This document shows, piece after piece, positions 962-61,755 of a stretch of DNA of 64,000 nt. The notes beneath the pieces were generated by a model. The model saw nothing but the letters and a program-made list of their open reading frames with translations, ran no database searches and was not told where the DNA came from. A program made the position numbers and the translations under genes. Positions within the stretch are counted from its first letter, which is position 1. Each line of letters starts with the position of its first letter. Source of the DNA: Thermoplasmata archaeon (lineage in GTDB: Archaea; Thermoplasmatota; Thermoplasmata; Thermoplasmatales; ARK-15); assembly GCA_039794005.1 (NCBI GenBank), contig JBAMMA010000001.1, forward strand, positions 64,001 through 128,000. The letters run 5' to 3'.

Positions 962-2128
962 ATGATGTACCTGGATAAAGAAGAGGAATCAATGCTGTCC
1001 GGTGAAAAAGGAGAGGCATTAAGGCTGGCAATGGAAATTATACTAAAACTTGGAGAATTTTACAATGCAGAGAGAACCATTAAAATAACGAGTTCACAGA
1101 TTTCTGGTGTATCTTATAAAAATATTGGTGATGCAGGTATAGATTTATTAAGAAAATTTAAGAATGTTAAGGTATCAGTTAAAACATTTTTAAATCCAAT
1201 CGGCTTTGAACTGGATTTTCCCTATGATTTTACACATGATGAAAATTTTATATCTAAGCAGATGGAAATAGTGAAGATATTTAACGATCTTGGAGTTTAT
1301 GAATCTTTGACATGCACCCCTTATTATTATTACTCTCCATCCTTTGGTGAGCATATTGCATGGGCAGAATCTTCAGCTATTGTATATGCAAATAGTGTCC
1401 TGGGAGCAAGAACAAATAGAGAAAGTGGTATTTCAGCACTTGCATCATCATTAACAGGAAGAACATCATATTATGGTATGCATTTGGAAGAAAATAGAAA
1501 AGCAACAATTTTGGTAGAAACCGATTTTAAACCAGATTATTTTACTTCGACAGTCCTCGGTTTATATTTAGGAAAAAATTTTAATGGAAAGATTCCATAT
1601 TTTAAAACAGTTGAAAATGATTTGGACACCTTAAAGCAGCTAGGTGCGGCCATGAATGCATCGGGCAGTATACCTATGTTTCATGTTGAAAATATAACCC
1701 CAGAATATAAAAATGGCCTCAATACAGATCATGAAAAGATTCACATTGAATTTTCAGAAATAGAAGAATTTAGAGAAAAAATAAATTCCAATATAGAACC
1801 TGAGGTATTAATGGCCGGATGTCCTCATTTATCCTCAAATGAAATAAGAAAAATTGCAACATTCGTAAAAAATAAGAAGGTAAAAAATGGAAAAAGTGTA
1901 TATTTCTTTACTTCAAGAAAAATTAAAAATGAAAATCAAGAATTAGTGAAAATAATTGAAAATACGGGTGCTAAAATTTACACGGATACGTGTATGGTTG
2001 TAAGTCCTTTAAAGGATAAATTTAATACCTTATATCTATCCTCTGGCAAATCTTCATACTACATTGGAAAGGAGAAGAAAATTGTTCTTTCTGACCTATT
2101 TGGAATCTTGGAGGTCATGATGACATGA
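962..2128 (+). CDS. Aconitase X catalytic large subunit (DUF521; phosphomevalonate dehydratase large subunit-like)
   Basis: SGVSYKNIGDAG, CTPY, AWAESSA, NSVLGARTNRE, GCPH and DTCMVV motifs, giving three Fe-S ligand cysteines; adjacent to a DUF126 gene. Confidence 0.9.
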   Translation: MMYLDKEEESMLSGEKGEALRLAMEIILKLGEFYNAERTIKITSSQISGVSYKNIGDAGIDLLRKFKNVKVSVKTFLNPIGFELDFPYDFTHDENFISKQMEIVKIFNDLGVYESLTCTPYYYYSPSFGEHIAWAESSAIVYANSVLGARTNRESGISALASSLTGRTSYYGMHLEENRKATILVETDFKPDYFTSTVLGLYLGKNFNGKIPYFKTVENDLDTLKQLGAAMNASGSIPMFHVENITPEYKNGLNTDHEKIHIEFSEIEEFREKINSNIEPEVLMAGCPHLSSNEIRKIATFVKNKKVKNGKSVYFFTSRKIKNENQELVKIIENTGAKIYTDTCMVVSPLKDKFNTLYLSSGKSSYYIGKEKKIVLSDLFGILEVMMT

Positions 2129-2880
2129 GATTCAAGGGGAGAGCAATTTATAAAGGTAAGGTGGAAGGTGAAGCTTTGGTATACAATTCTGGATTATCAT
2201 TTCTTGGGGGAGTAGCTCCTGAAAAGGGAGAAATTATAGAAAATCATAAAAGTATAACGGATAAAATATTTTCATTTGAGAGAAGTGTTGGAAGCACTGT
2301 AGGTTCATACATTATATACGGTTTAAAATATTACAAGAAAGCGCCTCGCGCAATGATCGTAAATGTTCCAGATGAAACTTTCATAACGGGATCATTGATC
2401 TCTGAAATACCTTCAATTGCTTACATCTCCTCATACATATTTCAGGATGGGGATATAGTTTATTTAGATGGAGATTACGTTGAACTGGACGTCGATGTAA
2501 AAGAAGTTGTTACATCTATATTAGTACATGGAGACGAAATGCTATTGTTGAAGAGGAGTGGAAAAGTTTCAACATATCAGGGTAAATGGGCGGGTGTTTC
2601 CGGATATATTGAGGACCTTGATCCCCTCTCTACAGCAATAAAAGAAATTAAGGAAGAGACTGGAATAGAAAATCCCGTCCTATTAAGGAATGGAGGCAAA
2701 ATTTACGTTAGAGATAATAAGAGGTTATGGATAGTACATAATTTTCTTTTTCACGTAAAAAATAAAAATGTCAAAATAGATTGGGAACACGTAGAATTTA
2801 AATGGATTAAAATAAAGGATTTCAAAAATTTTGATACCGTTCCGGGCCTAGACAGGGTTGTTCAAAATTTATTGTTATAA
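2125..2880 (+). CDS. Aconitase X small (swiveling, DUF126) subunit fused to a C-terminal Nudix hydrolase domain
   Basis: N-terminal GKVEGEALV..SFLGGV..GSTVGSY motif of DUF126; C-terminal LLLKRS..GKWAGVSGYIE..KEIKEETG Nudix box and DWEHVEFKW. Start overlaps the upstream stop (ATGA). Confidence 0.88.
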   Translation: MRFKGRAIYKGKVEGEALVYNSGLSFLGGVAPEKGEIIENHKSITDKIFSFERSVGSTVGSYIIYGLKYYKKAPRAMIVNVPDETFITGSLISEIPSIAYISSYIFQDGDIVYLDGDYVELDVDVKEVVTSILVHGDEMLLLKRSGKVSTYQGKWAGVSGYIEDLDPLSTAIKEIKEETGIENPVLLRNGGKIYVRDNKRLWIVHNFLFHVKNKNVKIDWEHVEFKWIKIKDFKNFDTVPGLDRVVQNLLL

Positions 2881-3069
2881 TTTTTGAATTGTTATAGAAC
2901 CCGTTGGGCAATTATTCATGCATTCTTGACATCCATCAATACATGCTTCTGGATGTACAACTTTGCTTACATTTTCAATTGTAAATACTACTGGATTCGC
3001 CGGACAAACTGATGCACAAATACCGCATGCAATACATGTTGATTCATCAACAACTGGTTTTTGAGGCAT
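2875..3069 (-). CDS. 2[4Fe-4S] ferredoxin
   Basis: CIACGICASVCP and CIDGCQECMNNCP motifs; GGTGA SD upstream of ATG 3069. Confidence 0.9.
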   Translation of the reverse strand: MPQKPVVDESTCIACGICASVCPANPVVFTIENVSKVVHPEACIDGCQECMNNCPTGSITIQKL

Positions 3070-3136
3070 TATCAATCACCTTAATATGTTAAAAGGCAAA
3101 CTTATTATAAAAGTTTCTTTCATTTTATTTACTACA

Positions 3137-4126
3137 ATGATATATGTTAAAGTACAAAGGAAAAAAGTTGAAGATGTAAAGGAAAGGATGTTCGAGATGG
3201 GTAATTTGGAGGATAATTATAAAATAATGGTTGATGATAAATTCGGTTACATTCCCGTAAAAAAATTTGTTGATGGATATGAAATAGTTGAATTTGAAGG
3301 TGAAAGGAGAAAAAAAATTTTGAGTCCCTACGAAAAAATAAAGGAACTTTTTCCATTGAAAAATTATTCTTTATATCTTCCAGAAAAATGGGAAAAATAT
3401 GGAGATATTCTGTTAATAAAATTGCCGGATGTTTTAAATCCCTATAAAGATATCGTTGGAGAAACATATTCAAAGGTATTAAATGTTAAAACAGTTATAA
3501 ATTATAAAAAGGTAAAAGGTGAACTAAGGGAACCTGAAGGTGAAATCATATATGGCAAAAATTCTGAAACCATACACCTTGAAAATGGCATATATTACAA
3601 ATTTGATGCATTAAAAATAATGTTTTCATCCGGAAATGTTGATGAAAGAATCAGGATGTCAAAATTAAATTTTGTAAATAATAAAATTGTTGATATGTTT
3701 GCAGGAATAGGTTACTTTTCTCTACCTATTGCAAAATATTCATTTCCTGAAAAGGTCATAGCCATTGAAAAAAATCCAACATCATTTGAATATTTGTTGG
3801 AAAATATTAGAATAAATAATATTAATAATATTATTCCCATTTTTGGAGACAACAGAAACATAAAAATAAAGGACTGGGCAGATGTTGTAATAATGGGGTA
3901 TATACACACAAAAGAATTCATACCATACGCGATTAATATGTTAAATAAAAAGGGTATATTAATATACCATGATACATTTAGAAAGGATGAAATTAAAAAT
4001 TTTGAAAAAATTATTGAGAATATTTTTGGAAATTATCAATTTCATATAATAAGAAAACATATTTTGAAATCATATGCTCCATCAATTTATCACGTAGTTT
4101 TAGATATTTTTATAAGAAAAGTTTAA
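3137..4126 (+). CDS. Trm5/Taw2(TYW2)-family SAM-dependent tRNA G37 modification enzyme
   Basis: WEKYGDI, ENGIYYKFD..MFSSGN..ERIRM, VDMFAGIGYF, EKNP, KSYAP..HVVLD. Start placed at ATG 3137 rather than 3086. Confidence 0.85.
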   Translation: MIYVKVQRKKVEDVKERMFEMGNLEDNYKIMVDDKFGYIPVKKFVDGYEIVEFEGERRKKILSPYEKIKELFPLKNYSLYLPEKWEKYGDILLIKLPDVLNPYKDIVGETYSKVLNVKTVINYKKVKGELREPEGEIIYGKNSETIHLENGIYYKFDALKIMFSSGNVDERIRMSKLNFVNNKIVDMFAGIGYFSLPIAKYSFPEKVIAIEKNPTSFEYLLENIRINNINNIIPIFGDNRNIKIKDWADVVIMGYIHTKEFIPYAINMLNKKGILIYHDTFRKDEIKNFEKIIENIFGNYQFHIIRKHILKSYAPSIYHVVLDIFIRKV

Positions 4127-17169: not shown

Positions 17170-17705
17170 TCTATATAATTAAAATAATCCTTTTCCTCAT
17201 CGGTTTTTTCTGAACTGATTAACATCAGATTTTTATATTCCTTAGTTGTTTGATCAAATTCATAAAATAATTTTTTACCTATCAGAGATTCGACCTCTAA
17301 TTTATTCATTATTTTTATTGCAGAATCAATATCTTCATTTTTTAATAATATTATAAATTTATTTTCATATGAAAAAAATGATGCTAACCAAATTTTGATT
17401 TTTGTGTCCAATTCTAAAATTTTCATTAAAATATTATATTCCGGAGAATTCGATGGAATATTTTCTAATCGGCTCCAAAGAAAATTTAGGGTATCGGTAT
17501 TTACAGTATAGGCTTTATAAGATGCAAGCCATATCTCCAAAAATTTGTTGATTTCAATATATTTTTTAAACGCATCAATTATTTTTGAATTTGGTTTTTC
17601 TTTTTTCATTTCATTTTTTAAAAGATATGCCATCGATTCATCCAAATATTCCAGATCTTTTTCATTTATCCCATATTTGCTATATTTATTTTCCTTTTTC
17701 TCCAT
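17166..17705 (-). CDS. Hypothetical helical protein with an internal IWLAS repeat
   Basis: Translationally coupled ORF between mtnA and the mobA-like gene; GGAGGT SD. Confidence 0.75.
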   Translation of the reverse strand: MEKKENKYSKYGINEKDLEYLDESMAYLLKNEMKKEKPNSKIIDAFKKYIEINKFLEIWLASYKAYTVNTDTLNFLWSRLENIPSNSPEYNILMKILELDTKIKIWLASFFSYENKFIILLKNEDIDSAIKIMNKLEVESLIGKKLFYEFDQTTKEYKNLMLISSEKTDEEKDYFNYIE

Positions 17706-18705
17706 ATTTAATAACCTCCTTCAGGTCTTCAGGCCTCAATATTCCAAATTCAGTTATGAAACCGGTCACATACTTAGATGGAGTAACATCAAACGCAGGA
17801 TTATATGCATTAGATCCCACCGGAGCTATTCTTTTATCATTTATATATAATACTTCCCTTTCATCCCTTAATTCTATAGGTATCTCATCACCATTTTTTA
17901 TATTTGGATCAATTGTAGAAATAGGTGCAGCAACAAAGAAAGGTATTTCATTTTCATTTGCTAAAACTGCTTTTTCATAGGTACCTATTTTATTAGCAAA
18001 ATCTCCATTTATCGCTATTCTATCAGCACCCACTATAACAATATCAACCATGCCTTTTTTCATAACATATCCTGCAGCGTTATCAGCGATAATTTTATGA
18101 TCTATACCCTCCATTAATAATTCCCATGCTGTTAACTTAGCACCCTGAAGCCTAGGTCTTGTTTCATCTACCCATACAAAAACCTTTTTACCATTTTTCT
18201 TTGCTATTCTTATAGGGGCTAATGCTGTTCCTAAATCTAATACTGCCAATGCTCCAGCATTGCAATGTGTCAAAATTCTCATTCCATCTTTTATTAATTT
18301 ATCTCCATTCTCTCCTATTTTATATTCTTTATTTCTTATCATATTTGCATATTCCAAAGCCGACTTCACAGGATCTTTTCCTTCTTTGATATTTTTCATC
18401 ATATAATTTAAGGCATAAAATAGATCATATGCCGTTGGCCTGGATTTAGATATCACATTATATGCATCATCCAAATCTTTTTTCTGCAACATTGCCTGGG
18501 CCATTCCATATGCAGCCGCAACACCTATTGCTGGTGCACCTCTGACAACCATATCTTTAATTGCAAATGCGACGTCCTTGTAATCTTTAGCTACATAAAA
18601 TTCAATGCTATCTGGAATTTTCCTTTGATCTAAAAATACAACATTTTCCCCATCCATCCAAACACTTACAATATCCTTTTTTTCACCATTAATTATTATT
18701 TGCAT
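17686..18705 (-). CDS. mtnA: S-methyl-5-thioribose-1-phosphate isomerase (eIF2B-like)
   Basis: LDQR, MVVRGAPAIG, SRPTA, LTHCNAGALA, DETRPRLQGAKLT, GADRI, NKIGTY, NPAFDVTP. Confidence 0.9.
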   Translation of the reverse strand: MQIIINGEKKDIVSVWMDGENVVFLDQRKIPDSIEFYVAKDYKDVAFAIKDMVVRGAPAIGVAAAYGMAQAMLQKKDLDDAYNVISKSRPTAYDLFYALNYMMKNIKEGKDPVKSALEYANMIRNKEYKIGENGDKLIKDGMRILTHCNAGALAVLDLGTALAPIRIAKKNGKKVFVWVDETRPRLQGAKLTAWELLMEGIDHKIIADNAAGYVMKKGMVDIVIVGADRIAINGDFANKIGTYEKAVLANENEIPFFVAAPISTIDPNIKNGDEIPIELRDEREVLYINDKRIAPVGSNAYNPAFDVTPSKYVTGFITEFGILRPEDLKEVIKYGEKGK

Positions 18706-32764: not shown

Positions 32765-33975
32765 GCTCCAAACTTTTCAGATCTATTACTGTAATTTAAT
32801 AGTAAATTCATAACATCAGAGCCCCTAATTCTCAATGATCCTCTAATGGCCGATATTTCATCAAAACTCTCAATACCGTCCTTTCTGAGGCCTTCAGAAG
32901 ATATCAACACAGGTAGGGGATCTCCTGTATGATCTTTTACGCTGCATGGTGTTGAATGATCTCCCGTGATCATTATCACAGCCTTATCGATAATATCCCT
33001 CAGAGGTTCCATGGCTTTATCGGCTCTTTCTATAACATCCCTTTTCAATATGGGATTCCCATCATGCCCAGCTATATCTGTAGCCTTAATGTTAACTAAA
33101 ACGAAATCGTATTCATTAAGAGCATTTATAGCACCTTTGATTTTAGCTTCCATATCCGTATTTATAGTCCCTGTGACACCTTTTATTTTTAATGGTGTGA
33201 TGCCTGCCAATTTGCATATGCCGGAAATTAATGGTACTCCAACTATGCATGCAGAACGCAAAGAATATTTTTTTTCAAAATTTTCCAATTCTGGAACAAT
33301 TCCTGCCCCTCTCAGTAATACAATATTTGCCGGCATTTTATTTTGTCTTCTCCTTTCCATATTTACTGGGTGATTGTTCAATATTTCATAGCTTTTTTTT
33401 GTAAATTCATTTACTATTTTAGCCAATTTTTTCCCATCATCGTTTAAAGGTTGAGAAATCTTAACTTTAGAATTTTCAGAATGCGGATCTGTATCCGTAA
33501 TTTTGGGAGACAATCCATTTCCTCTAAAAACTATGGCTACCCTATGTTCTACACCTTCCTTTGCTAAAATTTCAACATCATCAATTTTAATATTCAAAGA
33601 TTCTGCGAGTTTGTCCGTTCCAGATTCTATTCTTCCAGCTCTTCTATCGATTACATTTAAATCATCATCAACCGTTGCAAAATTCCCCCTGAACGCAATA
33701 TCCCCTGGTCTCAGATCCATTCCAAGTCCCAGGGCTTCAAAGGGCCCTCTCCCAGTGTATATTTTATAAGGATCGTATCCCAATAAATTAAGGTGAGAGG
33801 TATCACTTCCAGGTCTTATGCCAGGGGCTATTGGATCCATTAACCCTACAATGCCATTCGATGCCAAAAAATCCATGTTTCTTTTTCTGGCAGCTTGAAG
33901 AGGAGTTTTAAAATTCAATTCCCTGGATGGTCTATCACCGAGGCCATCTAGTATGATCAATAATATCTTTTTCAT
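32761..33975 (-). CDS. apgM: 2,3-bisphosphoglycerate-independent phosphoglycerate mutase (archaeal type)
   Basis: DGLGDRP, PGSDTSHL, YTGRGPFEA, DIAGHDG, TGDHSTP, HTGDP. Confidence 0.95.
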   Translation of the reverse strand: MKKILLIILDGLGDRPSRELNFKTPLQAARKRNMDFLASNGIVGLMDPIAPGIRPGSDTSHLNLLGYDPYKIYTGRGPFEALGLGMDLRPGDIAFRGNFATVDDDLNVIDRRAGRIESGTDKLAESLNIKIDDVEILAKEGVEHRVAIVFRGNGLSPKITDTDPHSENSKVKISQPLNDDGKKLAKIVNEFTKKSYEILNNHPVNMERRRQNKMPANIVLLRGAGIVPELENFEKKYSLRSACIVGVPLISGICKLAGITPLKIKGVTGTINTDMEAKIKGAINALNEYDFVLVNIKATDIAGHDGNPILKRDVIERADKAMEPLRDIIDKAVIMITGDHSTPCSVKDHTGDPLPVLISSEGLRKDGIESFDEISAIRGSLRIRGSDVMNLLLNYSNRSEKFGA

Positions 33976-34646
33976 ATTAATAGATATGCAAAAAATGAAC
34001 TTAAAGTTATTGAAAATATATTAACTTCATGTTTATTCATCAAATTTCTATTTTCAAGCAGGGCTCCCAATAAACTATCTAAATTTGATGAAATAAATCC
34101 AAAAATGAAAATTATCAGAAAATTATACAATGATAATTCAAAAAATATATATGCAAATACTGATATTATAAATGAACCAAAAAGTGAAGATAATTCTCCA
34201 ATTATCGATATTCCACCATTCTCCCCTGTTTTTACCTTTTTTAGATTAATTATGTTGTATGTGTTCTTAGATAGAATTCCAATTTCTCCGGCCAATGTAT
34301 CAGCTAGTGCAGCTGCTACGGAAACTGAGAATACCGTTTCCTTTGTAATAATTTTCATAGGTAATAATACAACAATTGCTGGAACTAGACCTTTAGATAT
34401 TACGCTTTTGTAAGATCTTATTACATCATCGTTTTTATATTCTACCTTGAATTTTGAAAATATGTATGAAATAAATACAAATATTATTAATAAAATTAAA
34501 AAATATATATTACTTAAAAAGTATATTTCTAAACCAATAATTAAAGATAGTAATGAGGCTTTAAAGTCTAAAATTTTCAATAATACAGTTAAAATAAATA
34601 TAAGCAATAAAAATATTAAAATAAAAATTAAATATAGATTATTCAT
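33972..34646 (-). CDS. DUF92/TMEM19 family membrane protein
   Basis: ADTLAGEIG, GENGGIS..GE, DSLLGALLE, VN motifs. Confidence 0.85.
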   Translation of the reverse strand: MNNLYLIFILIFLLLIFILTVLLKILDFKASLLSLIIGLEIYFLSNIYFLILLIIFVFISYIFSKFKVEYKNDDVIRSYKSVISKGLVPAIVVLLPMKIITKETVFSVSVAAALADTLAGEIGILSKNTYNIINLKKVKTGENGGISIIGELSSLFGSFIISVFAYIFFELSLYNFLIIFIFGFISSNLDSLLGALLENRNLMNKHEVNIFSITLSSFFAYLLI

Positions 34647-36283: not shown

Positions 36284-36775
36284 TTAAAAATTTCGCTTCC
36301 TTTTATTTTTCTTTTTTAACCTTGTTAAAATCAATTCTGAACCGCAGTAGGGGCAATTCATATAATTTTTTCTGTAAATTCTTTTACATCCTTTGCATTT
36401 ATAAACCCAAATGTATACATCTTTAATACCTTCTTGAGAAAATGTCATATATTCTAAATTTAAAAATTTTAAAACGTTTTGTATCGCATAATCATCTGTA
36501 ACAACAGTATATCCGTATTTTATTGCAGCTGATATTAATTCTAAGTCAGTTTTTGACAATTTTTCAAAAATTCCAGTTTTTTTAGCAGTTTCGATTGCTT
36601 TTTTTAAGCTTTCATCGTCTATTTCTAAGATTTTGATGTTTTCTAAAATAGGATAATATTCTCTGTTTAATTTAATTTCATTAATTACACTCTCTATTGT
36701 AAAGGTCTCAACATCTGTAGGAAATGGTTTTCCTGATATTATCGCAGATGTATCCAATATTAATTTTTTCCCCAT
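36284..36775 (-). CDS. nob1: Nob1 PIN-domain rRNA-processing endonuclease
   Basis: LDTSA, LSKTD, TDDYAIQNV, C-terminal CKGC..CPYCG zinc ribbon. Confidence 0.9.
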   Translation of the reverse strand: MGKKLILDTSAIISGKPFPTDVETFTIESVINEIKLNREYYPILENIKILEIDDESLKKAIETAKKTGIFEKLSKTDLELISAAIKYGYTVVTDDYAIQNVLKFLNLEYMTFSQEGIKDVYIWVYKCKGCKRIYRKNYMNCPYCGSELILTRLKKKNKRKRNF

Positions 36776-37305
36776 ATCGAATGTTCAGTATATTCCCCAA
36801 TCTCATCCATTATTTTATAGACCATAAAATCTATTAGATCATCCAAACTTTTTGGTTTAAAATAAAATCCCGGAGAGGCGGGCATTATTATTACACCAAG
36901 GTCTGAAAGCTTTTTTAGGTTTTCCAGATGTATTGATGATATTGGTGTTTCTCTGAACAACAAAACTATTTTTCTTCTTTCTTTTAAAGCTACTTGAAAT
37001 GTTCGTGTAGTTAGCGTATCTGAAATTCCGGATGAAAATTTTGCTATTAGATCCATAGAAGCTGGTAAGACAGCATAGACATCATATTTGAATCCTCCTG
37101 ATGCTAATGGGGAGTTGAAATCATCATCTTCGTAATAATAGTTTGCTAAATTTTTTATATAATTGATGTCATATTCTGTTTCTTCCTTTATTATTCTTTT
37201 TGCCATTTTGGTTATGATCAAATACTTTTCTGATTTCAATTTTTCTAATACCTTAATTCCATAAATCACCCCTGAAGCTGCACCAATTGAGATTACAACC
37301 TTCAT
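36760..37305 (-). CDS. ubiX: UbiX-family flavin prenyltransferase
   Basis: GAASG..YG, ASG, LKERR, RETP..IHLEN, PASPGFY. Confidence 0.9.
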   Translation of the reverse strand: MKVVISIGAASGVIYGIKVLEKLKSEKYLIITKMAKRIIKEETEYDINYIKNLANYYYEDDDFNSPLASGGFKYDVYAVLPASMDLIAKFSSGISDTLTTRTFQVALKERRKIVLLFRETPISSIHLENLKKLSDLGVIIMPASPGFYFKPKSLDDLIDFMVYKIMDEIGEYTEHSIWGKN

Positions 37306-38257: not shown

Positions 38258-39235
38258 TCAAATAATTCCTTCTTTTATCCATTTTGCATAGTCTTTTGCA
38301 TGATATGTTATAATGATATCCGCCCCTGCCCTTTTGATAGAAGTTAGTATTTCTCTTACTACAGAAATTTCGTCCAAATATCCTGCCATACTAGCAGATT
38401 TTACCATGCTATATTCCCCACTAACATTATATGCCGCTATTGGTAATTTAAAGTTTTCCCTTGCCATCCTTATAATATCTAAATAAAACATAGCCGGTTT
38501 AACCATTATTATATCAGCGCCCTCTAAAATGTCCAACTCAATTTCTCTCATGGCCTCTCTGGCGTTGGAATAATTCATCTGATATGTTTTTCTATCGCCA
38601 AATTTAGGAGCAGAGTCAGCAGCATCTCTGAATGGTGAATATAAAGATGAAGAATATTTCGCACTATATGCCATAATTGGAAGATATTCATACCCATTTT
38701 TATCCAATATTTCCCTAATGGCCTTTACCTGGCCATCCATCATTCCGCTTGGTGCTATGACATCCACACCACTCTCGGCATAGCTAATTGCAATTTTTTG
38801 ATATATTTCAAGGGTATTATCATTCATTATTTTACCATCAGAAATTATTCCACAATGTCCATGAGAGGTGTATTCACACATACACAAATCAGCCATAACG
38901 AGTAGATCAGATTCATTTTTTATTTTTTTTATTGCTTTTTGGATTATTCCATTTTTATCATATGCACTAGATGCTTTTTCGTCTTTGCATGATGGTATTC
39001 CAAAAAGTAGAACAGCTTTGATTCCTAATTCTTCCAATTCCTTTATTTCATCAGTTAATTTTTCCAGAGGAAATCTGTAAATCCCTGGCATTGAATTTAT
39101 CTCCTTTTTATTTTTTATGTTTTCATCGATAAATAAGGGATAGATAAAGTCTTCAATTTCAACACATGTTTCTTCCACCATTCTTCTAAGTATTGGATTT
39201 TCCCTAAGTCTTCTCATTCTTATGGTAGGAAACAT
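38258..39235 (-). CDS. hemB: Porphobilinogen synthase
   Basis: [48 protein letters not shown]. Confidence 0.96.
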
Positions 39236-39236
39236 G

Positions 39237-40397
39237 TTAATCACCAAATATTTTCTTCAGAAATTCCAGATCTTCATTTTTTAAATATTTTTCTTGTGAT
39301 TTCAAATTTTTTATTATATTCAAATAAATCCTTTTTATTATTGAATTACCGTAAATCTGCAAAATTTCCCTTGAATTTTCACCAAGATATTTTATGGCCT
39401 TTTTTATTTCCTCATCCCTAATTTTTTCAGCCCTTTTAAACATATCAGAAATTATTTCCTCGATTTCGAGTGAGAGAATTTTATTTTCTATTTGAGGTAA
39501 TTTTTCCTCTATTATTTTTTCAGCCTTTAACATTTCTTCCTTTCTTCTTGTTATATTTTTATTTACAAAATTTTTAATATAATCAAGATCTATATATTCT
39601 CTATCATTTAATTTTTCTATGTTCCTTGGATTACCAAGATCCATGACGATATAGGGCTTTGGTAAATTAAAATTATCATTTTTTAAAAATGGTGCTTGTA
39701 TAGATATAGCAGATATAAGCGCATCATATTCATGAATCCTATTTCTTAAATTTTCTATAAAATCGATATGAACTTTGTATTCCCTTTTAATGAGGTCCAA
39801 CTTTTCTTTATTTCTTCCAAAAACTGTAATTTCGTATTCTTTATCACTTAAATATTTAAGAAGAGAATGTGCAACTTTACCAGTTCCAATAATACAAATC
39901 TTTCCATTTTTTGTAAAATCTTCTAGGATTTTAACTGCTGCTTGGGGTATTGATACTATACCGTTTCCAATCATGGTTTCCGATCTTATTATCTTTGATA
40001 TGTTAAGCGATTTCATGAAAATGTAATTAATGATTTTTCCAGAAGTATGATTTTTCATTGAATTATTAAGTGCTTCTTTTACTTGCCTTTGTACATCTTG
40101 TTCACCCGGTATCATCGAATCCATTCCTGAAGATACTTTTATTATATGCCTTACAGCATCCATATCATAGAGGACTTTTGCCTCACCGTATTTTTCAAAT
40201 AATTTTTTTATATCTTCAGTGGGATCATTTTTAGGTACAATGTAAATCTCTAGTCTATTACAAGTTCTTAAAATTAAAATTTCTTTAAAGCTATTTTTGA
40301 AATTATTAATAATCAAATCGTCATTCAAAGATGTCCATTTTTCCAATGATAGCAAATCCATCTCCCTGTAACTTGCAACCACACTAACTAAAAACAT
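39237..40397 (-). CDS. hemA: Glutamyl-tRNA reductase
   Basis: [31 protein letters not shown]. Confidence 0.92.
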
Positions 40398-41016
40398 TCA
40401 TCCCCCTCCACAGAGACATGGCATATTCATATGCATGATCCAATTCTTCATTTTTTATATATTTCCAAAAATCTTCAGAATCCAACAATTTTTTAAAAAA
40501 TTCTCTTCTTTTTTCCTGATCATGGGAATCAAGTGATTTTCTAATTTTTTCCAAGACATCCAAAGATTTAGAATATTCTTCTATTTGCGTAGATAAACGA
40601 TCTCTTATAAATGAAGAAAGTGCAGGGACTCTTCCAGAAGTTGATATTGCCAATATAATTCCATTTTTTTCAATAAATGCTGGAAATATCATTCTGCTCT
40701 TTTTATCATCTACAAGATTAAATATTTTTCTTTTTTCAATGCATACTTCCATTATCATAGAATTTATTTTTTTATCGTTTGTTGCTATTATAACTAAATC
40801 AGCATTTAAAATATATTCAAGTACATCATCCTTCTTTTCAATCTTTTTTCTTACTTTTTTTACATTTAATCTTTCTATTTCTTCTATAAAGTCTTCTGAG
40901 ACTACTGTTATATCTGAACCCAAAAAATATTCCAATTTTCTATATGCTACTCTTCCACCACCAAAAATAACAACATTTATTTTTTCTAGGTCCAACAAAA
41001 TTGGAATGTATGACAT
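40384..41016 (-). CDS. Precorrin-2 dehydrogenase/sirohydrochlorin ferrochelatase (SirC/Met8 family)
   Basis: GGGRVAYRK, IATND, NLVD, AISTSG..PAL. Confidence 0.9.
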   Translation of the reverse strand: MSYIPILLDLEKINVVIFGGGRVAYRKLEYFLGSDITVVSEDFIEEIERLNVKKVRKKIEKKDDVLEYILNADLVIIATNDKKINSMIMEVCIEKRKIFNLVDDKKSRMIFPAFIEKNGIILAISTSGRVPALSSFIRDRLSTQIEEYSKSLDVLEKIRKSLDSHDQEKRREFFKKLLDSEDFWKYIKNEELDHAYEYAMSLWRGMNVFS

Positions 41017-41020
41017 TTTA

Positions 41021-41434
41021 TCATTTCCTAAGATTCTTTACTGTTTTCATAATTTCGAATTTAACATTCATTTCAGATAATTTTTCAGCAAAATTTTTCA
41101 ATTCATTTTCATCATGGAAATGACACATAGCAAAATAGTCGTAAGGAAAATTAATGTTTTTTTCCCTCACATAAAGATGTGTTATTTTTGTTGATGAAAT
41201 TATTTTATCTATTTTATTTTCATCCTCAAGTGCCATGGCTATAAGCGCACTCATATTATATCCTAATTTTTCATAGTTCAATAATGCTCTAAATTTTATT
41301 ATCTCTCCTTCATTTACTAATTTTTTAAGGATATCTATGAGTTCTTTTTTCTCAATTCCCAAGGATTTTGCAAAATCCCCGTATGGATCATCTGATATGG
41401 GTATACCTTTCTTTAATTTTGATATATCAATCAT
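41021..41434 (-). CDS. ahbB: Siroheme decarboxylase subunit (AhbB/NirH-like)
   Basis: GIPISDDPY, THLYVR..FPYDYFAMCH; lies in the ahb cluster. Confidence 0.8.
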   Translation of the reverse strand: MIDISKLKKGIPISDDPYGDFAKSLGIEKKELIDILKKLVNEGEIIKFRALLNYEKLGYNMSALIAMALEDENKIDKIISSTKITHLYVREKNINFPYDYFAMCHFHDENELKNFAEKLSEMNVKFEIMKTVKNLRK

Positions 41435-41907
41435 AGTTGCACCTCAAATTCCGTGTTTAATTTTATTGCTCTTACTGTTTTGAAAATCAAATAGTTTTTT
41501 GAATTCAATTTTTCAGCAATTTCTTTCACCTGTTTTTCAATCTCTTCATAATTTTTTGCCATAACTGTAAACCAAACATTATAATAATGTTCCCTTAAAT
41601 AGTTATGAGATACATTTTCATATGAATTTATTAGATTAGCCGCATTTTCTATTTTTTCTTTTTCTACATTCATTGCCACTAAAGCCCTTTCATATCTATC
41701 ATAATTTTTTAATGGAATTTTTGGTATAATTTTTTTAATGTATCCATTTTTATAAAGATTTATTATTTTTTCTTTTACAGTCTCTTCCTCTAAACCAAGT
41801 GCATTTGCGATTATTTTATAAGGTCTTTCATCAATTGGAAATTCTTCTTGGATTAATTTTAAAATTTTTACATCGATATCATCAATATTATCTTTTAAAA
41901 TGGACAT
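41431..41907 (-). CDS. ahbA: Siroheme decarboxylase subunit (AhbA/NirD-like)
   Basis: IQEEFPIDERPY, VSHNYLR..YNVWFT; start ATG 41907 with GGAGG SD. Confidence 0.85.
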   Translation of the reverse strand: MSILKDNIDDIDVKILKLIQEEFPIDERPYKIIANALGLEEETVKEKIINLYKNGYIKKIIPKIPLKNYDRYERALVAMNVEKEKIENAANLINSYENVSHNYLREHYYNVWFTVMAKNYEEIEKQVKEIAEKLNSKNYLIFKTVRAIKLNTEFEVQL

Positions 41908-42968
41908 GCGGGATCCTCCTGGAGGTAATCTCCATATACAGCATAAGCTCTTGCCCTCGAACCACCACAAATATCCCTAAATTCACATCTTCCACACTTT
42001 CCTTTTAACATATTGGGATTCTTAAGATCATTGAATATTTTAGAATTTTTGTAAACATTTTTTATGTTATCTTTTCTTACATTTCCCGCTATGATGGGCA
42101 AAAAACCGGTAGGCTGAATTTCACCTACGTGAGAAATGAAGATTGTACCTCTTCCATCGGTAACACCCATGTTATTAACATCCTTTGTAATGGGTAATGG
42201 CTTCTTTATCATATCTATACCAGAATGTTTTATTAGATATTCAAAAAGGTTTCCCTTATCTAATGGACCAGATATCTTTATTCTATTATAAAAAGGAGCC
42301 TCTGTAACTTTAATCCTGAAATCCGTTGAGGTTTGAACATAATAAAGCCATGACATTACTTGCATTATTTCATCAGAATTTAATGTTAATTCAGAAGTTG
42401 CCCTTCCAGTGGGGACTATAAAAAATAGGTCCCAGGATTTGACATTAAGATTTTTTACAAGTTTAAAAATTTCGGGCAAATCATAAATATTATGTTTTCC
42501 AACGGTGGTATTTACCTGCAAATTTACCTTTCCATCAAGATATTCTAATATTTCCATAGACTTCTTGAAAGTACCATCAACATTTCTAAATGTGTCGTGA
42601 ATTTCGGCATTACTTCCATCTATACTTATTGCCACATTCTTAACTTTTTCTGATATTCTATCCAACTTTTCTTTTGTTGCAAGCACTGTACCGCTAAACG
42701 AAATGGATATGTTAAATTTGTATTTATTGAAGATATCAAGGATATCAAATATATCTTCCCTCATCAATGGATCCCCACCGGTAATTATTAACATAGGCTT
42801 AGGATTGTTGAATTCATTAAGATCCATTGCCAATTTTTCAATTTCATCTAGATTTAATTCCAGTGGATTCCTTTTTTTCTGAGCATTAGCTCTGCAATGC
42901 CTGCATGATAGCATGCAGGCCCTTGTTACCTCGTAAAATACTATTATTGGATTTTCTGCAAAGTTCAT
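41895..42968 (-). CDS. ahbD: Radical SAM/SPASM protein, AhbD-like heme b synthase
   Basis: ACMLSCRHCRA, TGGDP, VPTGR, KGKCGRCEF..CGGSRARAYA..DPAC. Confidence 0.82.
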   Translation of the reverse strand: MNFAENPIIVFYEVTRACMLSCRHCRANAQKKRNPLELNLDEIEKLAMDLNEFNNPKPMLIITGGDPLMREDIFDILDIFNKYKFNISISFSGTVLATKEKLDRISEKVKNVAISIDGSNAEIHDTFRNVDGTFKKSMEILEYLDGKVNLQVNTTVGKHNIYDLPEIFKLVKNLNVKSWDLFFIVPTGRATSELTLNSDEIMQVMSWLYYVQTSTDFRIKVTEAPFYNRIKISGPLDKGNLFEYLIKHSGIDMIKKPLPITKDVNNMGVTDGRGTIFISHVGEIQPTGFLPIIAGNVRKDNIKNVYKNSKIFNDLKNPNMLKGKCGRCEFRDICGGSRARAYAVYGDYLQEDPACPF

Positions 42969-44158
42969 TTAAAATCCTCCGGAATTTCAGTTTTTATTTC
43001 TTCTTCAGTTAGGTAACAATCAGGATCTTCAGACCATAAATTTCCATTGTATTTAAGTGCTCTTACCCTGAATCCTCCGCAGATGTCTTTGAAATTGCAT
43101 CTTCCACATTTTCCCGTTAGTAATTCCATTTTTCTATGTCTTAAATCGTATATTATTCCAGTTTCATTTCTCCATATTTCAGAAAACTTTTTCTCTTTTA
43201 CATTACCTTGTGAATAATCCCACCAAAATTGATTTGGGTGTACATTTCCCCATGGATCGATATTTCCGGCCTTTATCCCGGAATTATCACCTCCCCTCCT
43301 TTTAAGAAGTTTATATACCTCTTTTGCTCTAGGATCGTTTTCTTTTAACAATTTCAGGAAGAGATAAATACCATCTACTGGATTATCTACAGTTAAAATC
43401 TCCATTTCTATTTTATTATCATGTATTTCATATGTTTTTTCTATCAGAAAATCTATTATTTTCCTTCTTTCTTCATTGTTTATATCTTGATTTATTGATC
43501 CCCTTCCAGAAGGTACTAAATGATAAACGCAAAATCTATCTATGTTTAATTCCTTAGAAAGCTCAAATACTTTGCTCAAATCATCTTTATTATATTTTGT
43601 AATCGTAAATCTAATTCCATTCATCATTCCTGCATTTTTAACATATTTTAAACCGGATAAAGCTTTTTCAAATGCACCATTTACACCTCTAAAATAATCA
43701 TTTTTCTTTCCATATCCATCAAGGCTAATTCCAACATATTTTACACCTGCTTCCGATAATTTAAAGGCAACAGATTCATTTATCGTTGTTCCATTGGATG
43801 AAAGGGTAACTCTAATTCCTTTTTCATTCATGTAGGAAGAGATTGTGTAAATGTCAGGATGGAGCGTAGGTTCTCCACCCGAAAGAATTACAACCGGCAA
43901 TTTCATTTCTGCGAGATCATCTGTTATTTCAATAATCTTATCGGTTGATAGTTCATTTGGTGTTTTTATTTCCGTGGCATTGGCATAACAATGAACGCAT
44001 TTTAAATTACATTGTAGTGTAAGGTTCCAAAAAAGAACCGCAAGATCTATTTTTGTATATCTTAAAAGTTCAGGATTTGTTTCATATTTAAATCTATTTT
44101 CATCAACAGCTTTACTTACTGTTCCAGATTTGAACAATAATTGATTAAATGCAATCAT
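42965..44158 (-). CDS. ahbC: Radical SAM/SPASM protein, AhbC-like Fe-coproporphyrin synthase
   Basis: WNLT..CNLKCVHCY, SGGEP, YVGISLDG, YHLVPSGRG, LTVDN..DG, VHPNQFW. Confidence 0.85.
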   Translation of the reverse strand: MIAFNQLLFKSGTVSKAVDENRFKYETNPELLRYTKIDLAVLFWNLTLQCNLKCVHCYANATEIKTPNELSTDKIIEITDDLAEMKLPVVILSGGEPTLHPDIYTISSYMNEKGIRVTLSSNGTTINESVAFKLSEAGVKYVGISLDGYGKKNDYFRGVNGAFEKALSGLKYVKNAGMMNGIRFTITKYNKDDLSKVFELSKELNIDRFCVYHLVPSGRGSINQDINNEERRKIIDFLIEKTYEIHDNKIEMEILTVDNPVDGIYLFLKLLKENDPRAKEVYKLLKRRGGDNSGIKAGNIDPWGNVHPNQFWWDYSQGNVKEKKFSEIWRNETGIIYDLRHRKMELLTGKCGRCNFKDICGGFRVRALKYNGNLWSEDPDCYLTEEEIKTEIPEDFK

Positions 44159-44267
44159 AACAAATACTTGTTATTATTAGAGGTATTTTAAATTTAGTAA
44201 TAAAATTTTATTAATTATAATTAAAAAGATGAAAAAATAAATATGTTTGAAATTTATAAATTTCATA

Positions 44268-45515
44268 ATGAAATCTGAAAAATTTTTTGAAGAAGCGAAA
44301 AAAATCTTTCCAGGTGGTGTAAATTCACCTGTAAGGTATTATGATCCATACCCAATTTTTATAAAAAGTGGCAAAGGATCAAAAATATACGATGTCGATA
44401 ATAGGGAATATGTCGATTTCTGTTTAGCCTACGGGCCACTGATTCTTGGCCATTTAAATGATCAGGTGAAAAAAGCCGTTCAGAGGAAAATGGAAAATGG
44501 ATGGTTATTTGGAGCGCCAACTGAGGAGGAAATTTTACTTGGAAAATTAATCAATGAAGCTGTTCCCTATATAGAAATGATGAGATTTGTAAATTCTGGT
44601 ACTGAAGGAACTATGCACACTATCAGGTTAGTCAGGGCATTTACTAATAAAAAAAGGATAGTAAAAATTATCGGGGGATATCACGGAGCTCACGATTCTG
44701 TATTAGTTTCACCAGGAAGTGGCGCTATTGGAAAACCTTCATCGGCAGGAATTCCAGAAGAAGTTACATCAAACACTTTTGTTGTTGAATATAATGATAT
44801 TGAAACACTTGAGAATATATTTAGGAATTATAAAAATGAGATTGCTGGATTGATAATCGAACCCGTGTTAGGAAATGCAGGTGTGATTTTACCCGATAAA
44901 GAATACTTAAAAAATGTACGTGAAATTACTTCTGAAAATGATGCCCTGTTAATATTTGACGAGGTTATCACAGGATTTAGGTTTCACTATGGAACAGCAG
45001 GTCAATATTTTTCTGTAATACCAGATCTTACTATCTTGGGGAAAATCGTTGGTGGTGGATTTCCTCTTGCTATATTCGGAGGCAGAAAAGACATCATGGA
45101 AAAAATTTCGCCTCAAGGAAACGTATATCAGGCAGGTACATTTTCAGGAAATCCCATTTCTGTAACTGCAGGAATAACTACATTAAAAATATTGAAAAAT
45201 AAGGATTATCATGAACTGGAGAATAAGGTTAAAATCATTGAGAAATTTGTAAACGATTTGAAGGAAGACAAAGGGAGGGAAATACAGTTTAATTCTATGG
45301 TTAGCATGTTTCAGATATTTTTTAATAAAAATCCAGTAAAAAGATATTCGGATGCAATTAATTCAGATTCCGTTAAATATAAAGAATTTTTTAATAAAAT
45401 GTTAAAAAATGGTTTTTATTTACCTCCAAGTCAGTTTGAATCTCTATTTTTAAGTTTTGCACATACCAAAAAAGAAATATATAATTTTGGAAAGATAATC
45501 TATGATGAATTATAA
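44268..45515 (+). CDS. hemL: Glutamate-1-semialdehyde 2,1-aminomutase
   Basis: PGGVNSPVR, NSGTE, YHG, FDEVITGFR, GKIVGGG, QAGTFSGNP, PSQFE. Confidence 0.96.
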   Translation: MKSEKFFEEAKKIFPGGVNSPVRYYDPYPIFIKSGKGSKIYDVDNREYVDFCLAYGPLILGHLNDQVKKAVQRKMENGWLFGAPTEEEILLGKLINEAVPYIEMMRFVNSGTEGTMHTIRLVRAFTNKKRIVKIIGGYHGAHDSVLVSPGSGAIGKPSSAGIPEEVTSNTFVVEYNDIETLENIFRNYKNEIAGLIIEPVLGNAGVILPDKEYLKNVREITSENDALLIFDEVITGFRFHYGTAGQYFSVIPDLTILGKIVGGGFPLAIFGGRKDIMEKISPQGNVYQAGTFSGNPISVTAGITTLKILKNKDYHELENKVKIIEKFVNDLKEDKGREIQFNSMVSMFQIFFNKNPVKRYSDAINSDSVKYKEFFNKMLKNGFYLPPSQFESLFLSFAHTKKEIYNFGKIIYDEL

Positions 45516-46365
45516 GATAAGGATTGGAACACGTGGAAGCAATCTAGCACTAATTCAGGCATTAGAAGTTTCTGAAATGTTAAAGAATATAGGATTTGAT
45601 ACTGAGATAATAAAGATCAAGACAGAAGGGGATATAGATCAAAGGCCCCTTTACATGACAAGAGAGTTTGGAATTTTTACAAAAAAGATTAATGAAGAAC
45701 TTTTGAATGAAAATATTGACATTGCTGTTCACAGCATGAAGGACTTACCTGTAAAAATTGAAGAAGGATTGAAAATTGTTTCAGTTCTAAAGAGAGAACG
45801 TTACGAAGATTTTTTCTTATCGAATAAAAACATTTTTGAAATTGAAGAGGGGAAAAAGATTGGAACTTCAAGCCTAAGAAGGAAATCATTCTTGAAAATA
45901 ATCAGACCCGATATAGAGATTGTTGATGTAAGAGGAAATATTGATACAAGGATAAAAAAATATGAAAATAAAGAGGTAGATGGTTTAATTCTTGCATATG
46001 CAGGAATTAAAAGGCTTAATCTTAACCCCATAGGTCATATATTAGACCCGGATTTATTTGTACCTCAGGCAAATCAAGGTATAATTGCCATACTTTCAAG
46101 AAACGATTTTCATTTGAATGAAAAGATATCTTTAATCAATCATAAAGAAACATTTTTAATTGGTATGGTTGAAAAAGAATTTTTAAGAGAGTTAGATGCA
46201 GGTTGTCATTCCCCGGTAGGTGTTCTTGCGAGGTTAATTGATGGTAAAATTTTAATTCATGTAGCATACATAGATGATAAGAGATATGATTACTGGTCTA
46301 AATTTGAAATCAAATATCTTGATGAAGAGTTGAAAAGATTTCGAAGGTGGTATGATGCCAGGTAA
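45502..46365 (+). CDS. hemC: Hydroxymethylbilane synthase
   Basis: GTRGSNLA, AVHSMKDLP, GTSSLRR, RGNIDTR, GCHSP. Confidence 0.95.
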   Translation: MMNYKIRIGTRGSNLALIQALEVSEMLKNIGFDTEIIKIKTEGDIDQRPLYMTREFGIFTKKINEELLNENIDIAVHSMKDLPVKIEEGLKIVSVLKRERYEDFFLSNKNIFEIEEGKKIGTSSLRRKSFLKIIRPDIEIVDVRGNIDTRIKKYENKEVDGLILAYAGIKRLNLNPIGHILDPDLFVPQANQGIIAILSRNDFHLNEKISLINHKETFLIGMVEKEFLRELDAGCHSPVGVLARLIDGKILIHVAYIDDKRYDYWSKFEIKYLDEELKRFRRWYDAR

Positions 46366-47074
46366 GGTATATTTAATAGGTGCAGGTCCAGGAGATCCCG
46401 ATCTTTTGACATTGAAAGCCTATAAAATAATAAAGAGGAGTGATGTTGTTCTATATGACCGTCTTATAAATAAATCGATATTAAAAAAAATTCCCAGGGG
46501 GATAAAAAAAATATTAGTTGGCAAAAGTCCCGGTGATGATCCAGATGTTTTACAGAATAAAATTAACGAATTGATTGAAAAATATTACAATGAAGGTAAA
46601 ATAGTTGTAAGATTAAAATCTGGAGATCCATTTTTATTTGGGAGGGGTGGTGAAGAACTAGAATTCATGAAACAAAGGAAAATTGATTTTGAAGTTATAC
46701 CAGGTATAACCTCTGCAATAGGAGTTCCAACATATATAAAACTTCCTTTGACTCATAGAAATTATTCTTCTTCTGTGATGATTATTTCAGGACATCTCAA
46801 AAGAAACAAAGCTATAAACTGGGAAATAGTTTCAAGATTTGATGGAACTATTGTTATTTTAATGGGAATAAGCAATATGCAAGAAATAATGAATAATTTG
46901 ATCGTTTATGGTAAAGATGAAAATACGCCTGTTTGTGTAATTCAATATGGAACAACAAAAAAACAAAAGATTGTTAAGGGTAATTTAACAAATATTGTTG
47001 AAATCGCGAAAAAAAACAGAATAAAGGCGCCTGGAATTATTGTTATTGGTAAGGTGGTTGATTTGCTTGATTAG
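46352..47074 (+). CDS. cobA: Uroporphyrinogen-III C-methyltransferase (SUMT)
   Basis: GAGPGDPDLLT, YDRL, RLKSGDPFLFGRGGEE, PGITSA, PLTHR. Confidence 0.95.
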   Translation: MMPGKVYLIGAGPGDPDLLTLKAYKIIKRSDVVLYDRLINKSILKKIPRGIKKILVGKSPGDDPDVLQNKINELIEKYYNEGKIVVRLKSGDPFLFGRGGEELEFMKQRKIDFEVIPGITSAIGVPTYIKLPLTHRNYSSSVMIISGHLKRNKAINWEIVSRFDGTIVILMGISNMQEIMNNLIVYGKDENTPVCVIQYGTTKKQKIVKGNLTNIVEIAKKNRIKAPGIIVIGKVVDLLD

Positions 47075-59744: not shown

Positions 59745-59750
59745 TCATAG

Positions 59751-61751: not shown

Positions 61752-61755
61752 AACC

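Follow-up and report, generated by a model that had tools for sequence, protein, structure and literature searches.

The archaeal mevalonate pathway has phosphomevalonate dehydratase (PMDh) as one of its key enzymes, and the small subunit has been a plain protein of about 130 amino acids in every example characterised. The decarboxylase step that follows it requires prenylated flavin mononucleotide (prFMN). According to the accessible part of one study, the [4Fe-4S] cluster of the A. pernix enzyme is bound by three conserved cysteines (122, 297 and 356) (PMC10040528). Here, we describe a gene from a Thermoplasmata archaeon in which the small (AcnX swivel) subunit of this dehydratase is joined to a Nudix hydrolase domain. 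The gene lies in a stretch of 64,000 nucleotides (contig JBAMMA010000001.1, positions 64,001 to 128,000), hereafter the window. The reading that we favour, while giving it a little less than an even chance, is that of a genuine dehydratase subunit carrying an active Nudix domain with a nucleotide-type substrate. The features on which the analysis is based are the following:

962..2128, forward strand: AcnX large-subunit gene (PMDh large subunit), 388 amino acids (PF04412, E 3.8e-131)
2125..2880, forward strand: fused open reading frame (ORF), AcnX small (swivel) subunit plus Nudix, 251 amino acids, ATG start
2125..2493, forward strand: AcnX small-subunit (swivel) domain, residues 1-123, with GSTVGS at 56-61
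2494..2877, forward strand: Nudix domain of the fusion, residues 124-251 (PF00293)
2602..2667, forward strand: variant Nudix box GYIEDLDPLSTAIKEIKEETGI, residues 160-181

ORF calling of the window shows that the fused frame reads without interruption. Pfam finds both halves over cut-off, PF01989 (AcnX_swivel_put) at residues 24-96 (E 1.1e-20, 73.7 bits against a cut-off of 27) and PF00293 (NUDIX) at residues 129-248 (E 4e-12, 46.7 bits against 21.1), in agreement with the preliminary description of this DNA, which had proposed one continuous ORF made of a DUF126/AcnX small subunit and a Nudix domain. The boundary lies near residue 124 (nt 2494), the point from which that description had the Nudix domain begin, and the structural model places it there as well. 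The start of the fusion overlaps the stop of the AcnX large-subunit gene as ATGA. The large subunit, which matches the T. kodakarensis chain 7cnr_A at E 3e-94, contains exactly three cysteines (C118, C287 and C344). Hence, the coupling to a three-cysteine AcnX large subunit that had been pointed out earlier is confirmed by the PF04412 match, the overlap and the residues themselves. Directly upstream, the stop of an HtrA-like protease gene (65-961) immediately precedes the large-subunit start.

The AlphaFold2 model of the fusion, built from an alignment of 41 sequences, has a mean pLDDT of 96.3, a pTM of 0.87 and no low-confidence segment. About three residues separate the final swivel strand (118-120) from the initial Nudix strand (124-135). 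Since the model is confident throughout and the gap between the domains is so short, the fusion is predicted to be a rigid two-domain unit rather than beads on a string. A predicted complex between the large subunit and the isolated Nudix domain (residues 124-251) obtained a score of 0.00 and a mark of 0.32, values that bear on contact in neither direction.

Homology and established knowledge of the enzyme predict that residues 1-123 are a genuine PMDh small subunit. With a profile built from 41 fused homologues, TK1248 (7cnr_B) is matched at E 4.6e-49 and AF0055 (2hi6) at E 1.4e-42. The model of the fusion superposes on the small-subunit chains of 7cnr with a TM(target) of 0.87-0.89 and 42-43% identity (Foldseek; 0.89 and 43% for 7cnr_F), and G56-S57-T58-V59-G60 of the GSTVGS motif are invariant in the 41 fused homologues. 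The NCBIfam model PRK03955 gives the fusion 103.1 bits, under its cut-off of 163. These Pfam and PDB matches, together with the three cysteines, agree with the earlier statement that AcnX large and small subunits together form PMDh. Furthermore, a whole-genome search (1.10 Mb, 20 contigs, 87% complete) found the swivel domain of the fusion and no other. As it is the sole AcnX small subunit found in this genome, the N-terminal half of the fusion must serve as that of PMDh. The genome also encodes mevalonate kinase (MVK; 193.2 bits) and type 2 isopentenyl-diphosphate isomerase (type 2 IDI; 380.7 bits), both over cut-off, and two genes of the UbiD family. One of these is a menaquinone decarboxylase (TIGR03701, 498.7 bits against 495.9), and the second, a plain member of 416 amino acids, is a candidate for the anhydromevalonate phosphate decarboxylase.

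The fusion is not restricted to this genome. A protein homologue search with the fusion retrieved 662 proteins at E <= 1e-3 among 1150 candidates, and both PF01989 and PF00293 are present in 119 of the best 120 of these 662 (236-315 amino acids), which bears out the earlier expectation that the fusion might already exist in databases for related Thermoplasmata. Named sources are metagenome-assembled genomes (MAGs) of Thermoplasmata, Methanomassiliicoccales and 'Methanobacteriota', and the relatives are annotated just as 'DUF126 domain-containing' or, by JGI, as 'aconitase with swiveling domain / NUDIX'. Among 301 sampled genomes of the class, 248 match the fusion at E <= 1e-5, a tally that includes one genome flagged as unpublished (G098). 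Every row among the matches listed covers both domains (query start <= 47, end >= 239), and the survey holds 129 further matches beyond those listed. The fusion spans most families of the class Thermoplasmata and is found in all three genomes of the window's own family (f1). In f3, a family of the same order, only one of 33 genomes has a match, and a weak one (4.1e-8), most f3 genomes being 96-99% complete. This near-absence fits the report that Thermoplasmatales do not use the AcnX route, as stated in the accessible text of PMC10040528. Five other families (f2, f11, f19, f4 and f5; one genome checked in each) have an unfused small subunit of 134-140 amino acids. In all four fused loci that have a strong swivel domain and available upstream sequence (L046, L077, L083 and L090), the AcnX large-subunit gene lies directly upstream.

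In a maximum-likelihood phylogeny based on 146 Nudix domains and 138 columns (quick search, midpoint-rooted, many forks unresolved), 46 of the 47 AcnX-S-fused domains fall to one side of a branch with an SH-aLRT support of 88, together with seven stand-alone rows, at least one of which duplicates a fused locus as a truncated call. Another 16 stand-alone domains from Thermoplasmatota and related organisms form a clade of their own (SH-aLRT 97) that groups with other archaeal stand-alone forms. The tree suggests that the AcnX-S-Nudix fusion arose essentially once in Thermoplasmata. The exception in the tree, L074 (783-1649), has a weak swivel score (35.5 bits) and no adjacent AcnX large subunit. 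A comparable case is found in genome G001 (L008:1444-2214, reverse strand), where a 257-amino-acid gene, again without an adjacent AcnX large subunit, has an N-terminal domain without PF01989 match and retains the Nudix domain. Since G001 also holds a separate canonical small subunit (L013), its Nudix domain has been kept for its own sake while the swivel domain decayed. Therefore, such decayed-swivel forms show a Nudix domain that is under selection for itself.

The canonical Nudix box is GX5EX7REUXEEXGU. The box at residues 160-181 of the fusion keeps the core E-x2-EE, the G and the U (KEIKEETGI), with D in place of the first E and K in place of R. In the window and its nearest relatives its spacing is one residue short of canonical, so that the variant box announced in the preliminary description is indeed present. 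This departure from the typical form extends across the whole family: [RK]EUxEE occurs in 36 of 41 fused sequences and in 12 of 31 mostly stand-alone sequences (alignments A1 and A2, respectively), the strict consensus is satisfied by three and one of them, and relaxed spacing by 23 and seven. Two motifs found in both alignments, G[KR]WAGVSGY and DWEHxx[YAF][KRE]W[IV], mark the family. Among the fused sequences, E174 and E177 never vary, E178 is kept in at least 90% of them, and R144, S145, W155, S159, G160, R196, W220, E221, H222, W227, V239 and P240 are also conserved. The same positions are kept in A2, where E52, E55 and E56 (the equivalents of E174, E177 and E178), E103, H104 and W109 are invariant. 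R196 is invariant across the 41 fused sequences and variable among the stand-alone ones. The Nudix fold is supported by Foldseek matches to many Nudix structures and, since the metal-binding E-x2-EE is intact, we infer that the domain is catalytically competent.

The family resembles the NCBIfam models NudB, NudI, MutT, NudG, RppH and NudE, all far under cut-off. With 21.4 bits against 103 for NudB and 20.1 against 95 for NudI, the fused domain is not a member of these equivalogs. No equivalog match over cut-off was obtained in NCBIfam for NudF, NudE, NudC or NadM-Nudix (20 bits against 449 with the NadM-Nudix model for the window protein; 24 bits with the NudE model for the stand-alone L007). 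Rosa NUDX1 (6ypf) ranks 42nd in the Foldseek comparison, with a TM(target) of 0.67 and 18% identity. A protein cluster search retrieved generic 'NUDIX domain' clusters alone (Nitrososphaerota, Chloroflexota, Thermodesulfobacteriota) and hence no functional lead. Two specific identities were considered and rejected. A type 1 IDI was set aside, given that the NCBIfam matches at E <= 0.01 include no IDI model and that a type 2 IDI is encoded in the genome. A CoA pyrophosphatase role, prompted by the LLxKRS...G stretch, was dismissed because the match to 1nqy is weak (4e-5) and a separate CoA-pyrophosphatase-like Nudix exists in the genome. Two other Nudix genes were found in this genome. G000:C1:140333-140698 (L001:1183-1887) encodes a ModE-type helix-turn-helix domain fused to an NrtR/ADP-ribose-type Nudix (235 amino acids), and G000:C7:7013-7342 (L003:1369-1896) encodes the CoA-pyrophosphatase-like Nudix (176 amino acids). 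The fused domain is therefore the sole small MutT-like Nudix found in the genome.

A search for stand-alone orthologues gave 119 clusters at E <= 1e-5 among 124 candidates, with 41-54% identity, one of them (P0122) being a truncated fusion, and a search of genome contigs found relatives encoded in 576 of 599 candidate stretches. Neighbourhoods were analysed for the best 80 of these 576 loci, which were ranked with a stand-alone query and are hence biased towards stand-alone forms. Their archaeal sources are Methanofastidiosa, Nitrososphaeria, Bathyarchaeia, Thermoplasmatota, an Asgard archaeon and an Aenigmatarchaeote; their bacterial sources are many Dehalococcoidia, as well as Spirochaetia, Alphaproteobacteria, Acidobacteriota, WOR-3 and Calditrichales. 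A Nudix ORF was called in 75 of the 80 loci (none in L058, L064, L066, L069 and L097). These comprise six AcnX-S fusions (five checked with Pfam, and L090 assigned by its length, clade and AcnX large-subunit neighbour), two PncC-Nudix, two Nudix-IF-2B and 65 ORFs of stand-alone size (115-195 amino acids). By these comparisons, the fused domain belongs to a distinct, widespread and uncharacterised family that is mostly stand-alone outside Thermoplasmata. Homologues that are mostly unfused and unlinked to mevalonate genes, a situation named in the preliminary description as counting against its proposal, are thus what is found for the family outside Thermoplasmata and are not what is found for the fused form itself.

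The neighbours (515 ORFs up to four genes either side) were clustered and representatives of the 25 largest clusters were annotated. On the upstream side, 16 loci (of Dehalococcoidia, apart from one in Calditrichales and one in Acidobacteriota) have a PncC-only gene of the CinA family. On the downstream side, 17 loci, mostly of Dehalococcoidia, have an IF-2B-family gene that resembles ribose-1,5-bisphosphate isomerase or MtnA and scores under all cut-offs. RNase PH is nearby in ten loci, mainly of the Dehalococcoidia group, and a D-aminoacyl-tRNA deacylase gene is upstream in nine loci of Nitrososphaeria/Thermoproteota. In stand-alone Thermoplasmatota loci, a PINA-type ATPase gene is found upstream in nine and a TYW2/Trm5 methyltransferase gene downstream in three (L030, L032 and L063). 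The latter neighbour also occurs at the fused locus L090 and in the window, where two genes follow the fusion:

2875..3075, reverse strand: small 2x[4Fe-4S] ferredoxin (Fer4_7, 5.1e-11)
3086..4126, forward strand: TYW2/Trm5-type tRNA methyltransferase

The ferredoxin gene is convergent with the fusion and shares its final 6 nt.

Moreover, the family has other fusion partners. Long relatives of a Chloroflexota member amount to 272 proteins at E <= 1e-10 among 647 candidates, and 119 of the best 120 of these 272 (P0240-P0359) contain a CinA/PncC domain, the remaining one having a major facilitator superfamily (MFS) domain. For instance, L081:5485-6402 and L095:5482-6396 (Dehalococcoidia/Chloroflexota) encode PncC-Nudix proteins of about 305 amino acids with the Nudix domain at the C-terminus. 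PncC-Nudix is therefore a second, independent and lineage-wide fusion of this family. In the two Nudix-IF-2B fusions (L040:5971-7281, Bathyarchaeota MAG; L093:4875-6101, Acidoferrum MAG), the Nudix domain is N-terminal and the C-terminal domain resembles ribose-1,5-bisphosphate isomerase or MtnA. These two are nearly identical despite their differing taxon labels, which suggests mis-binning or transfer. The window itself contains an IF-2B-family gene (17689-18705, reverse strand), an S-methyl-5-thioribose-1-phosphate isomerase (MtnA; 407.8 bits against a cut-off of 271), which lies outside the IF-2B subfamily found beside the Dehalococcoidia Nudix genes (23% identity).

In the favoured reading, residues 1-123 and the translationally coupled AcnX large subunit would convert mevalonate 5-phosphate into trans-anhydromevalonate 5-phosphate. 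Residues 124-251 would be a member of the widespread family of small MutT/NudI-like Nudix hydrolases, predicted to be competent, and would split a diphosphate linked to a nucleotide (ADP-ribose/NAD or (d)NTP type) instead of being a dedicated prenyl-diphosphate phosphatase. A nucleotide-type substrate is suggested by the association of the family with PncC, with IF-2B-type isomerases and with tRNA and DNA housekeeping genes. The sub-threshold NCBIfam similarities, confined to models of the NudB, NudI, MutT, NudG and RppH type, the lack of isoprenoid or prFMN neighbours in the 80 loci (AcnX large subunits beside four fused forms excepted) and the position of the fused domain as the one small MutT-like Nudix found in the genome also favour it. 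It is also attractive because classical CinA joins PncC to an ADP-ribose pyrophosphatase, as described in the available text of PMC3680494. The fusion probably formed once an AcnX large-small pair had become placed in front of a Nudix gene adjoining TYW2. The fused domains would then have become structurally integrated, as the linker of about three residues and the confident two-domain model would indicate. In our working view, tethering may mainly fix co-expression and stoichiometry, or stabilise the subunit.

Several points weigh against this reading. No NCBIfam Nudix model comes anywhere near its cut-off with this uncharacterised family. Its nearest characterised relatives, NudI and NudB, are reported to make dimethylallyl phosphate (DMAP) from dimethylallyl diphosphate (DMAPP), as far as the accessible part of PMC12359138 goes. 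A class-wide fusion that always stands beside the AcnX large subunit where the swivel domain is intact (the four loci mentioned above) is a classical hint of coupling. The family without AcnX, f3, is also without the Nudix domain (any match in 1 of 33 genomes), which fits coupling, although this co-loss is a single event hitting one physical gene. Full-length CinA is also present in four of five Chloroflexota genomes tested; the idea that the Nudix domain displaces COG1058 beside PncC is weakened accordingly, the PncC argument is weaker than simple displacement would make it, and the Nudix-linked PncC is a paralogue to which no specificity is assigned. The neighbourhood counts from Dehalococcoidia are not mutually independent, and the two IF-2B-type partners share 32% identity over 186 amino acids, no closer than to the MtnA of the window. 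Finally, the tree behind the single origin has 138 columns, a quick search and moderate support.

A different function was advanced in the preliminary description, namely that the fusion may supply DMAP for prFMN or act as a valve or sensor on isoprenoid flux. According to this explanation, the Nudix domain is a prenyl-diphosphate phosphohydrolase mounted on PMDh, converting DMAPP to DMAP or isopentenyl diphosphate (IPP) to isopentenyl phosphate (IP), and either giving DMAP to UbiX for the prFMN of the next enzyme or serving as a relief valve for IPP/DMAPP. The ubiX gene that it needs was correctly located in the window:

36763-37305, reverse strand: UbiX flavin prenyltransferase (TIGR00421, 196.8 bits against a cut-off of 108.9)

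Together with the two UbiD-family genes, this gene is in favour of the proposal, as are the conservation of a fusion to a mevalonate-pathway enzyme through most of the class, the loss of the Nudix domain along with AcnX in f3, and the fact that no paper on an archaeal DMAP source was found in literature searches. In addition, the archaeal stand-alone carriers Methanofastidiosa, Nitrososphaeria and Bathyarchaeia are generally held to use the archaeal mevalonate pathway. The best, albeit weak, similarities of the Nudix domain are to NudB and NudI; these two, like NudJ and NudF of E. coli, make DMAP from DMAPP in vitro (PMC12359138 in its accessible part, citing Wang et al. 2018).

However, the ubiX gene of the window is unlinked to the fusion, 34 kb away, and the NudB and NudI scores are about a fifth of their cut-offs. 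The Nudix family is abundant in bacteria, where UbiX is over cut-off in just four of ten carrier genomes (one of five Chloroflexota and three of five others, genomes of unstated completeness in which absence is unproven). The genome's UbiX, both UbiD proteins, IDI2, MVK, DUF92 protein and thiolase had no BLAST match among 852 ORFs of the 80 loci, so that no UbiX, UbiD, IDI2, MVK or DUF92 neighbour is seen around these members; the AcnX large subunit was the sole query matched, beside four fused forms. The other large-scale, independent fusion of the family has PncC, and not an isoprenoid enzyme, as partner. Furthermore, UbiX over cut-off is accompanied by an unfused small subunit in two genomes of f2 and one of f11 (93-99% complete), whose best match to the family profile is partial and reaches just 30-38 bits, which indicates that they have no orthologue of the fused Nudix. 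In f19, neither UbiX over cut-off nor the Nudix was found in two genomes of about 93% completeness (G021 and G033). One of these, G021, carries an unfused AcnX small subunit, yet no UbiX over cut-off was found in it.

Since four of ten carriers have UbiX and f2 and f11 run the pathway without the Nudix, the family appears to be neither limited to UbiX-bearing organisms nor required by relatives with the same pathway. Hence, the prenyl-phosphate interpretation gains no support from comparative evidence, and the role in DMAP supply or flux control has nothing positive in its favour beyond the fusion itself. We consider it improbable.

Still less probable, in our opinion, is a non-enzymatic Nudix domain that would act as a structural, oligomerisation or ligand-sensing module and stabilise or regulate the small subunit. 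The tight, linker-less join and the confident two-domain model would suit such a role, as would the non-canonical spacing of the box in the clade of the window and the lack of conservation of the R/K of 'REU' in the family. Decayed swivel domains are retained ahead of the Nudix domain in L008 and L074, so the two domains may lean on each other. However, fused and stand-alone forms alike keep the metal-binding E-x2-EE with little or no variation, the pocket-type residues R144, W155, E221, H222 and W227 are invariant, and the stand-alone orthologues have no partner to stabilise.

The last explanation, in which each Nudix makes the phosphomonoester that its fused enzyme uses (NMN from NAD for PncC, ribose 1,5-bisphosphate from phosphoribosyl pyrophosphate or ADP-ribose-1''-phosphate for the IF-2B-type isomerase and, in the window, mevalonate 5-phosphate from mevalonate 5-diphosphate for the dehydratase), would account for three different partners that are all enzymes on phosphorylated small molecules and for R196 as the mark of a specificity shift, but we hold it to be the least probable of all, because it demands three specificities from a family whose invariant residues stay the same at about 45-54% identity, presupposes a source of mevalonate diphosphate and has to accommodate family members that mostly stand alone.

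Other genes of the window deserve mention. An integral membrane protein of the DUF92/TIGR00297 family is encoded at 33975-34646 (reverse strand), 2 kb from ubiX. VTE6 of plants, a phytyl-phosphate kinase, is also a DUF92 protein, so the window protein could be a prenyl-phosphate kinase. A PIN_6-domain gene (PRK12496-like; 36287-36775, reverse strand) shares a few bases with the 3' end of ubiX, and the two are probably transcribed together. A complete-looking tetrapyrrole cluster at 38261-47786 contains hemB, hemA, precorrin-2 dehydrogenase-like and NirDL/AhbAB-like genes, two radical-SAM genes (AhbC/D-like), hemL, hemC, a uroporphyrinogen methylase gene and hemD, which suggests haem synthesis via the sirohaem route. 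At 59412-62940, an SCP2 protein, a fused 3-hydroxyacyl-CoA dehydrogenase/enoyl-CoA hydratase (666 amino acids) and a bacterial-type acetyl-CoA acetyltransferase (PRK06445, 673 bits) are encoded. They form a beta-oxidation-like set in a small archaeal genome, and the thiolase could also feed the mevalonate pathway.

In the literature searched, which left subscription journals and supplements aside, no paper naming both 'phosphomevalonate dehydratase' and 'Nudix' was found, and 'DUF126' with 'Nudix' led to just one unrelated plant paper. The word 'nudix' is absent from the accessible parts of the AcnX structure paper (PMC8184944) and of a survey of the archaeal mevalonate pathway (PMC11052028). 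No published description of the fusion was therefore encountered, and the earlier remark that no characterisation was known stands. The fusion can already be seen in databases and is an uncharacterised version of a known enzyme subunit.

In much of Thermoplasmata, including Methanomassiliicoccales, the small subunit bears a conserved Nudix domain that is predicted to be active. Should the two activities be coupled, the fusion would bring to light a step of control or cofactor supply in the synthesis of archaeal lipid precursors. If the DMAPP/IPP phosphohydrolase explanation were true, it would be the first identified archaeal DMAP route, creating a self-priming loop in the archaeal mevalonate pathway. 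If the two activities are uncoupled, the case would caution against reading pathway logic into every class-wide fusion to a pathway enzyme. In both cases, a very widespread uncharacterised Nudix family is defined (GKWAGVSGY, DWEHxEYKW), with AcnX-S, PncC and IF-2B-type isomerases as independent partners.

Among known systems, the nearest solved structure to the Nudix half is the 'MutT related protein' of M. mazei (3grn; phmmer 2.2e-7, profile 2.4e-12, TM(target) 0.81). Both show RRS...GKW and EHxEYxW stretches. However, 3grn shares 25% identity, has LPGGKV in place of AGVSGY, stands alone and has no function in its entry title. The best characterised matches after it, NudI, NudB and NudJ of E. 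coli/Klebsiella, which are small NTP/DHNTP pyrophosphatases, are similar in size and fold but do not have the motifs specific to the family. PncC-Nudix of Chloroflexota/Dehalococcoidia, annotated 'nicotinamide-nucleotide amidase' and uncharacterised, carries the same Nudix family, also at the C-terminus of a metabolic enzyme. Its partner is a PncC-family amidohydrolase, whereas that of the window fusion is AcnX-S, and the stand-alone and PncC-fused Nudix domains of Dehalococcoidia share one tree branch with other stand-alone forms. Its layout of pyrophosphatase plus PncC parallels that of CinA (COG1058 + PncC), whose pyrophosphatase has a different fold according to the accessible text of PMC3680494. 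Finally, the small subunits of AcnX type IIb, TK1248 (7cnr/7cns) and A. pernix APE_2089, have in common with the fusion the swivel domain, the GSTVGS motif and the coupling to the large subunit. These characterised subunits are single-domain proteins of about 130 amino acids, whereas the fusion adds a C-terminal Nudix domain of 128 amino acids.

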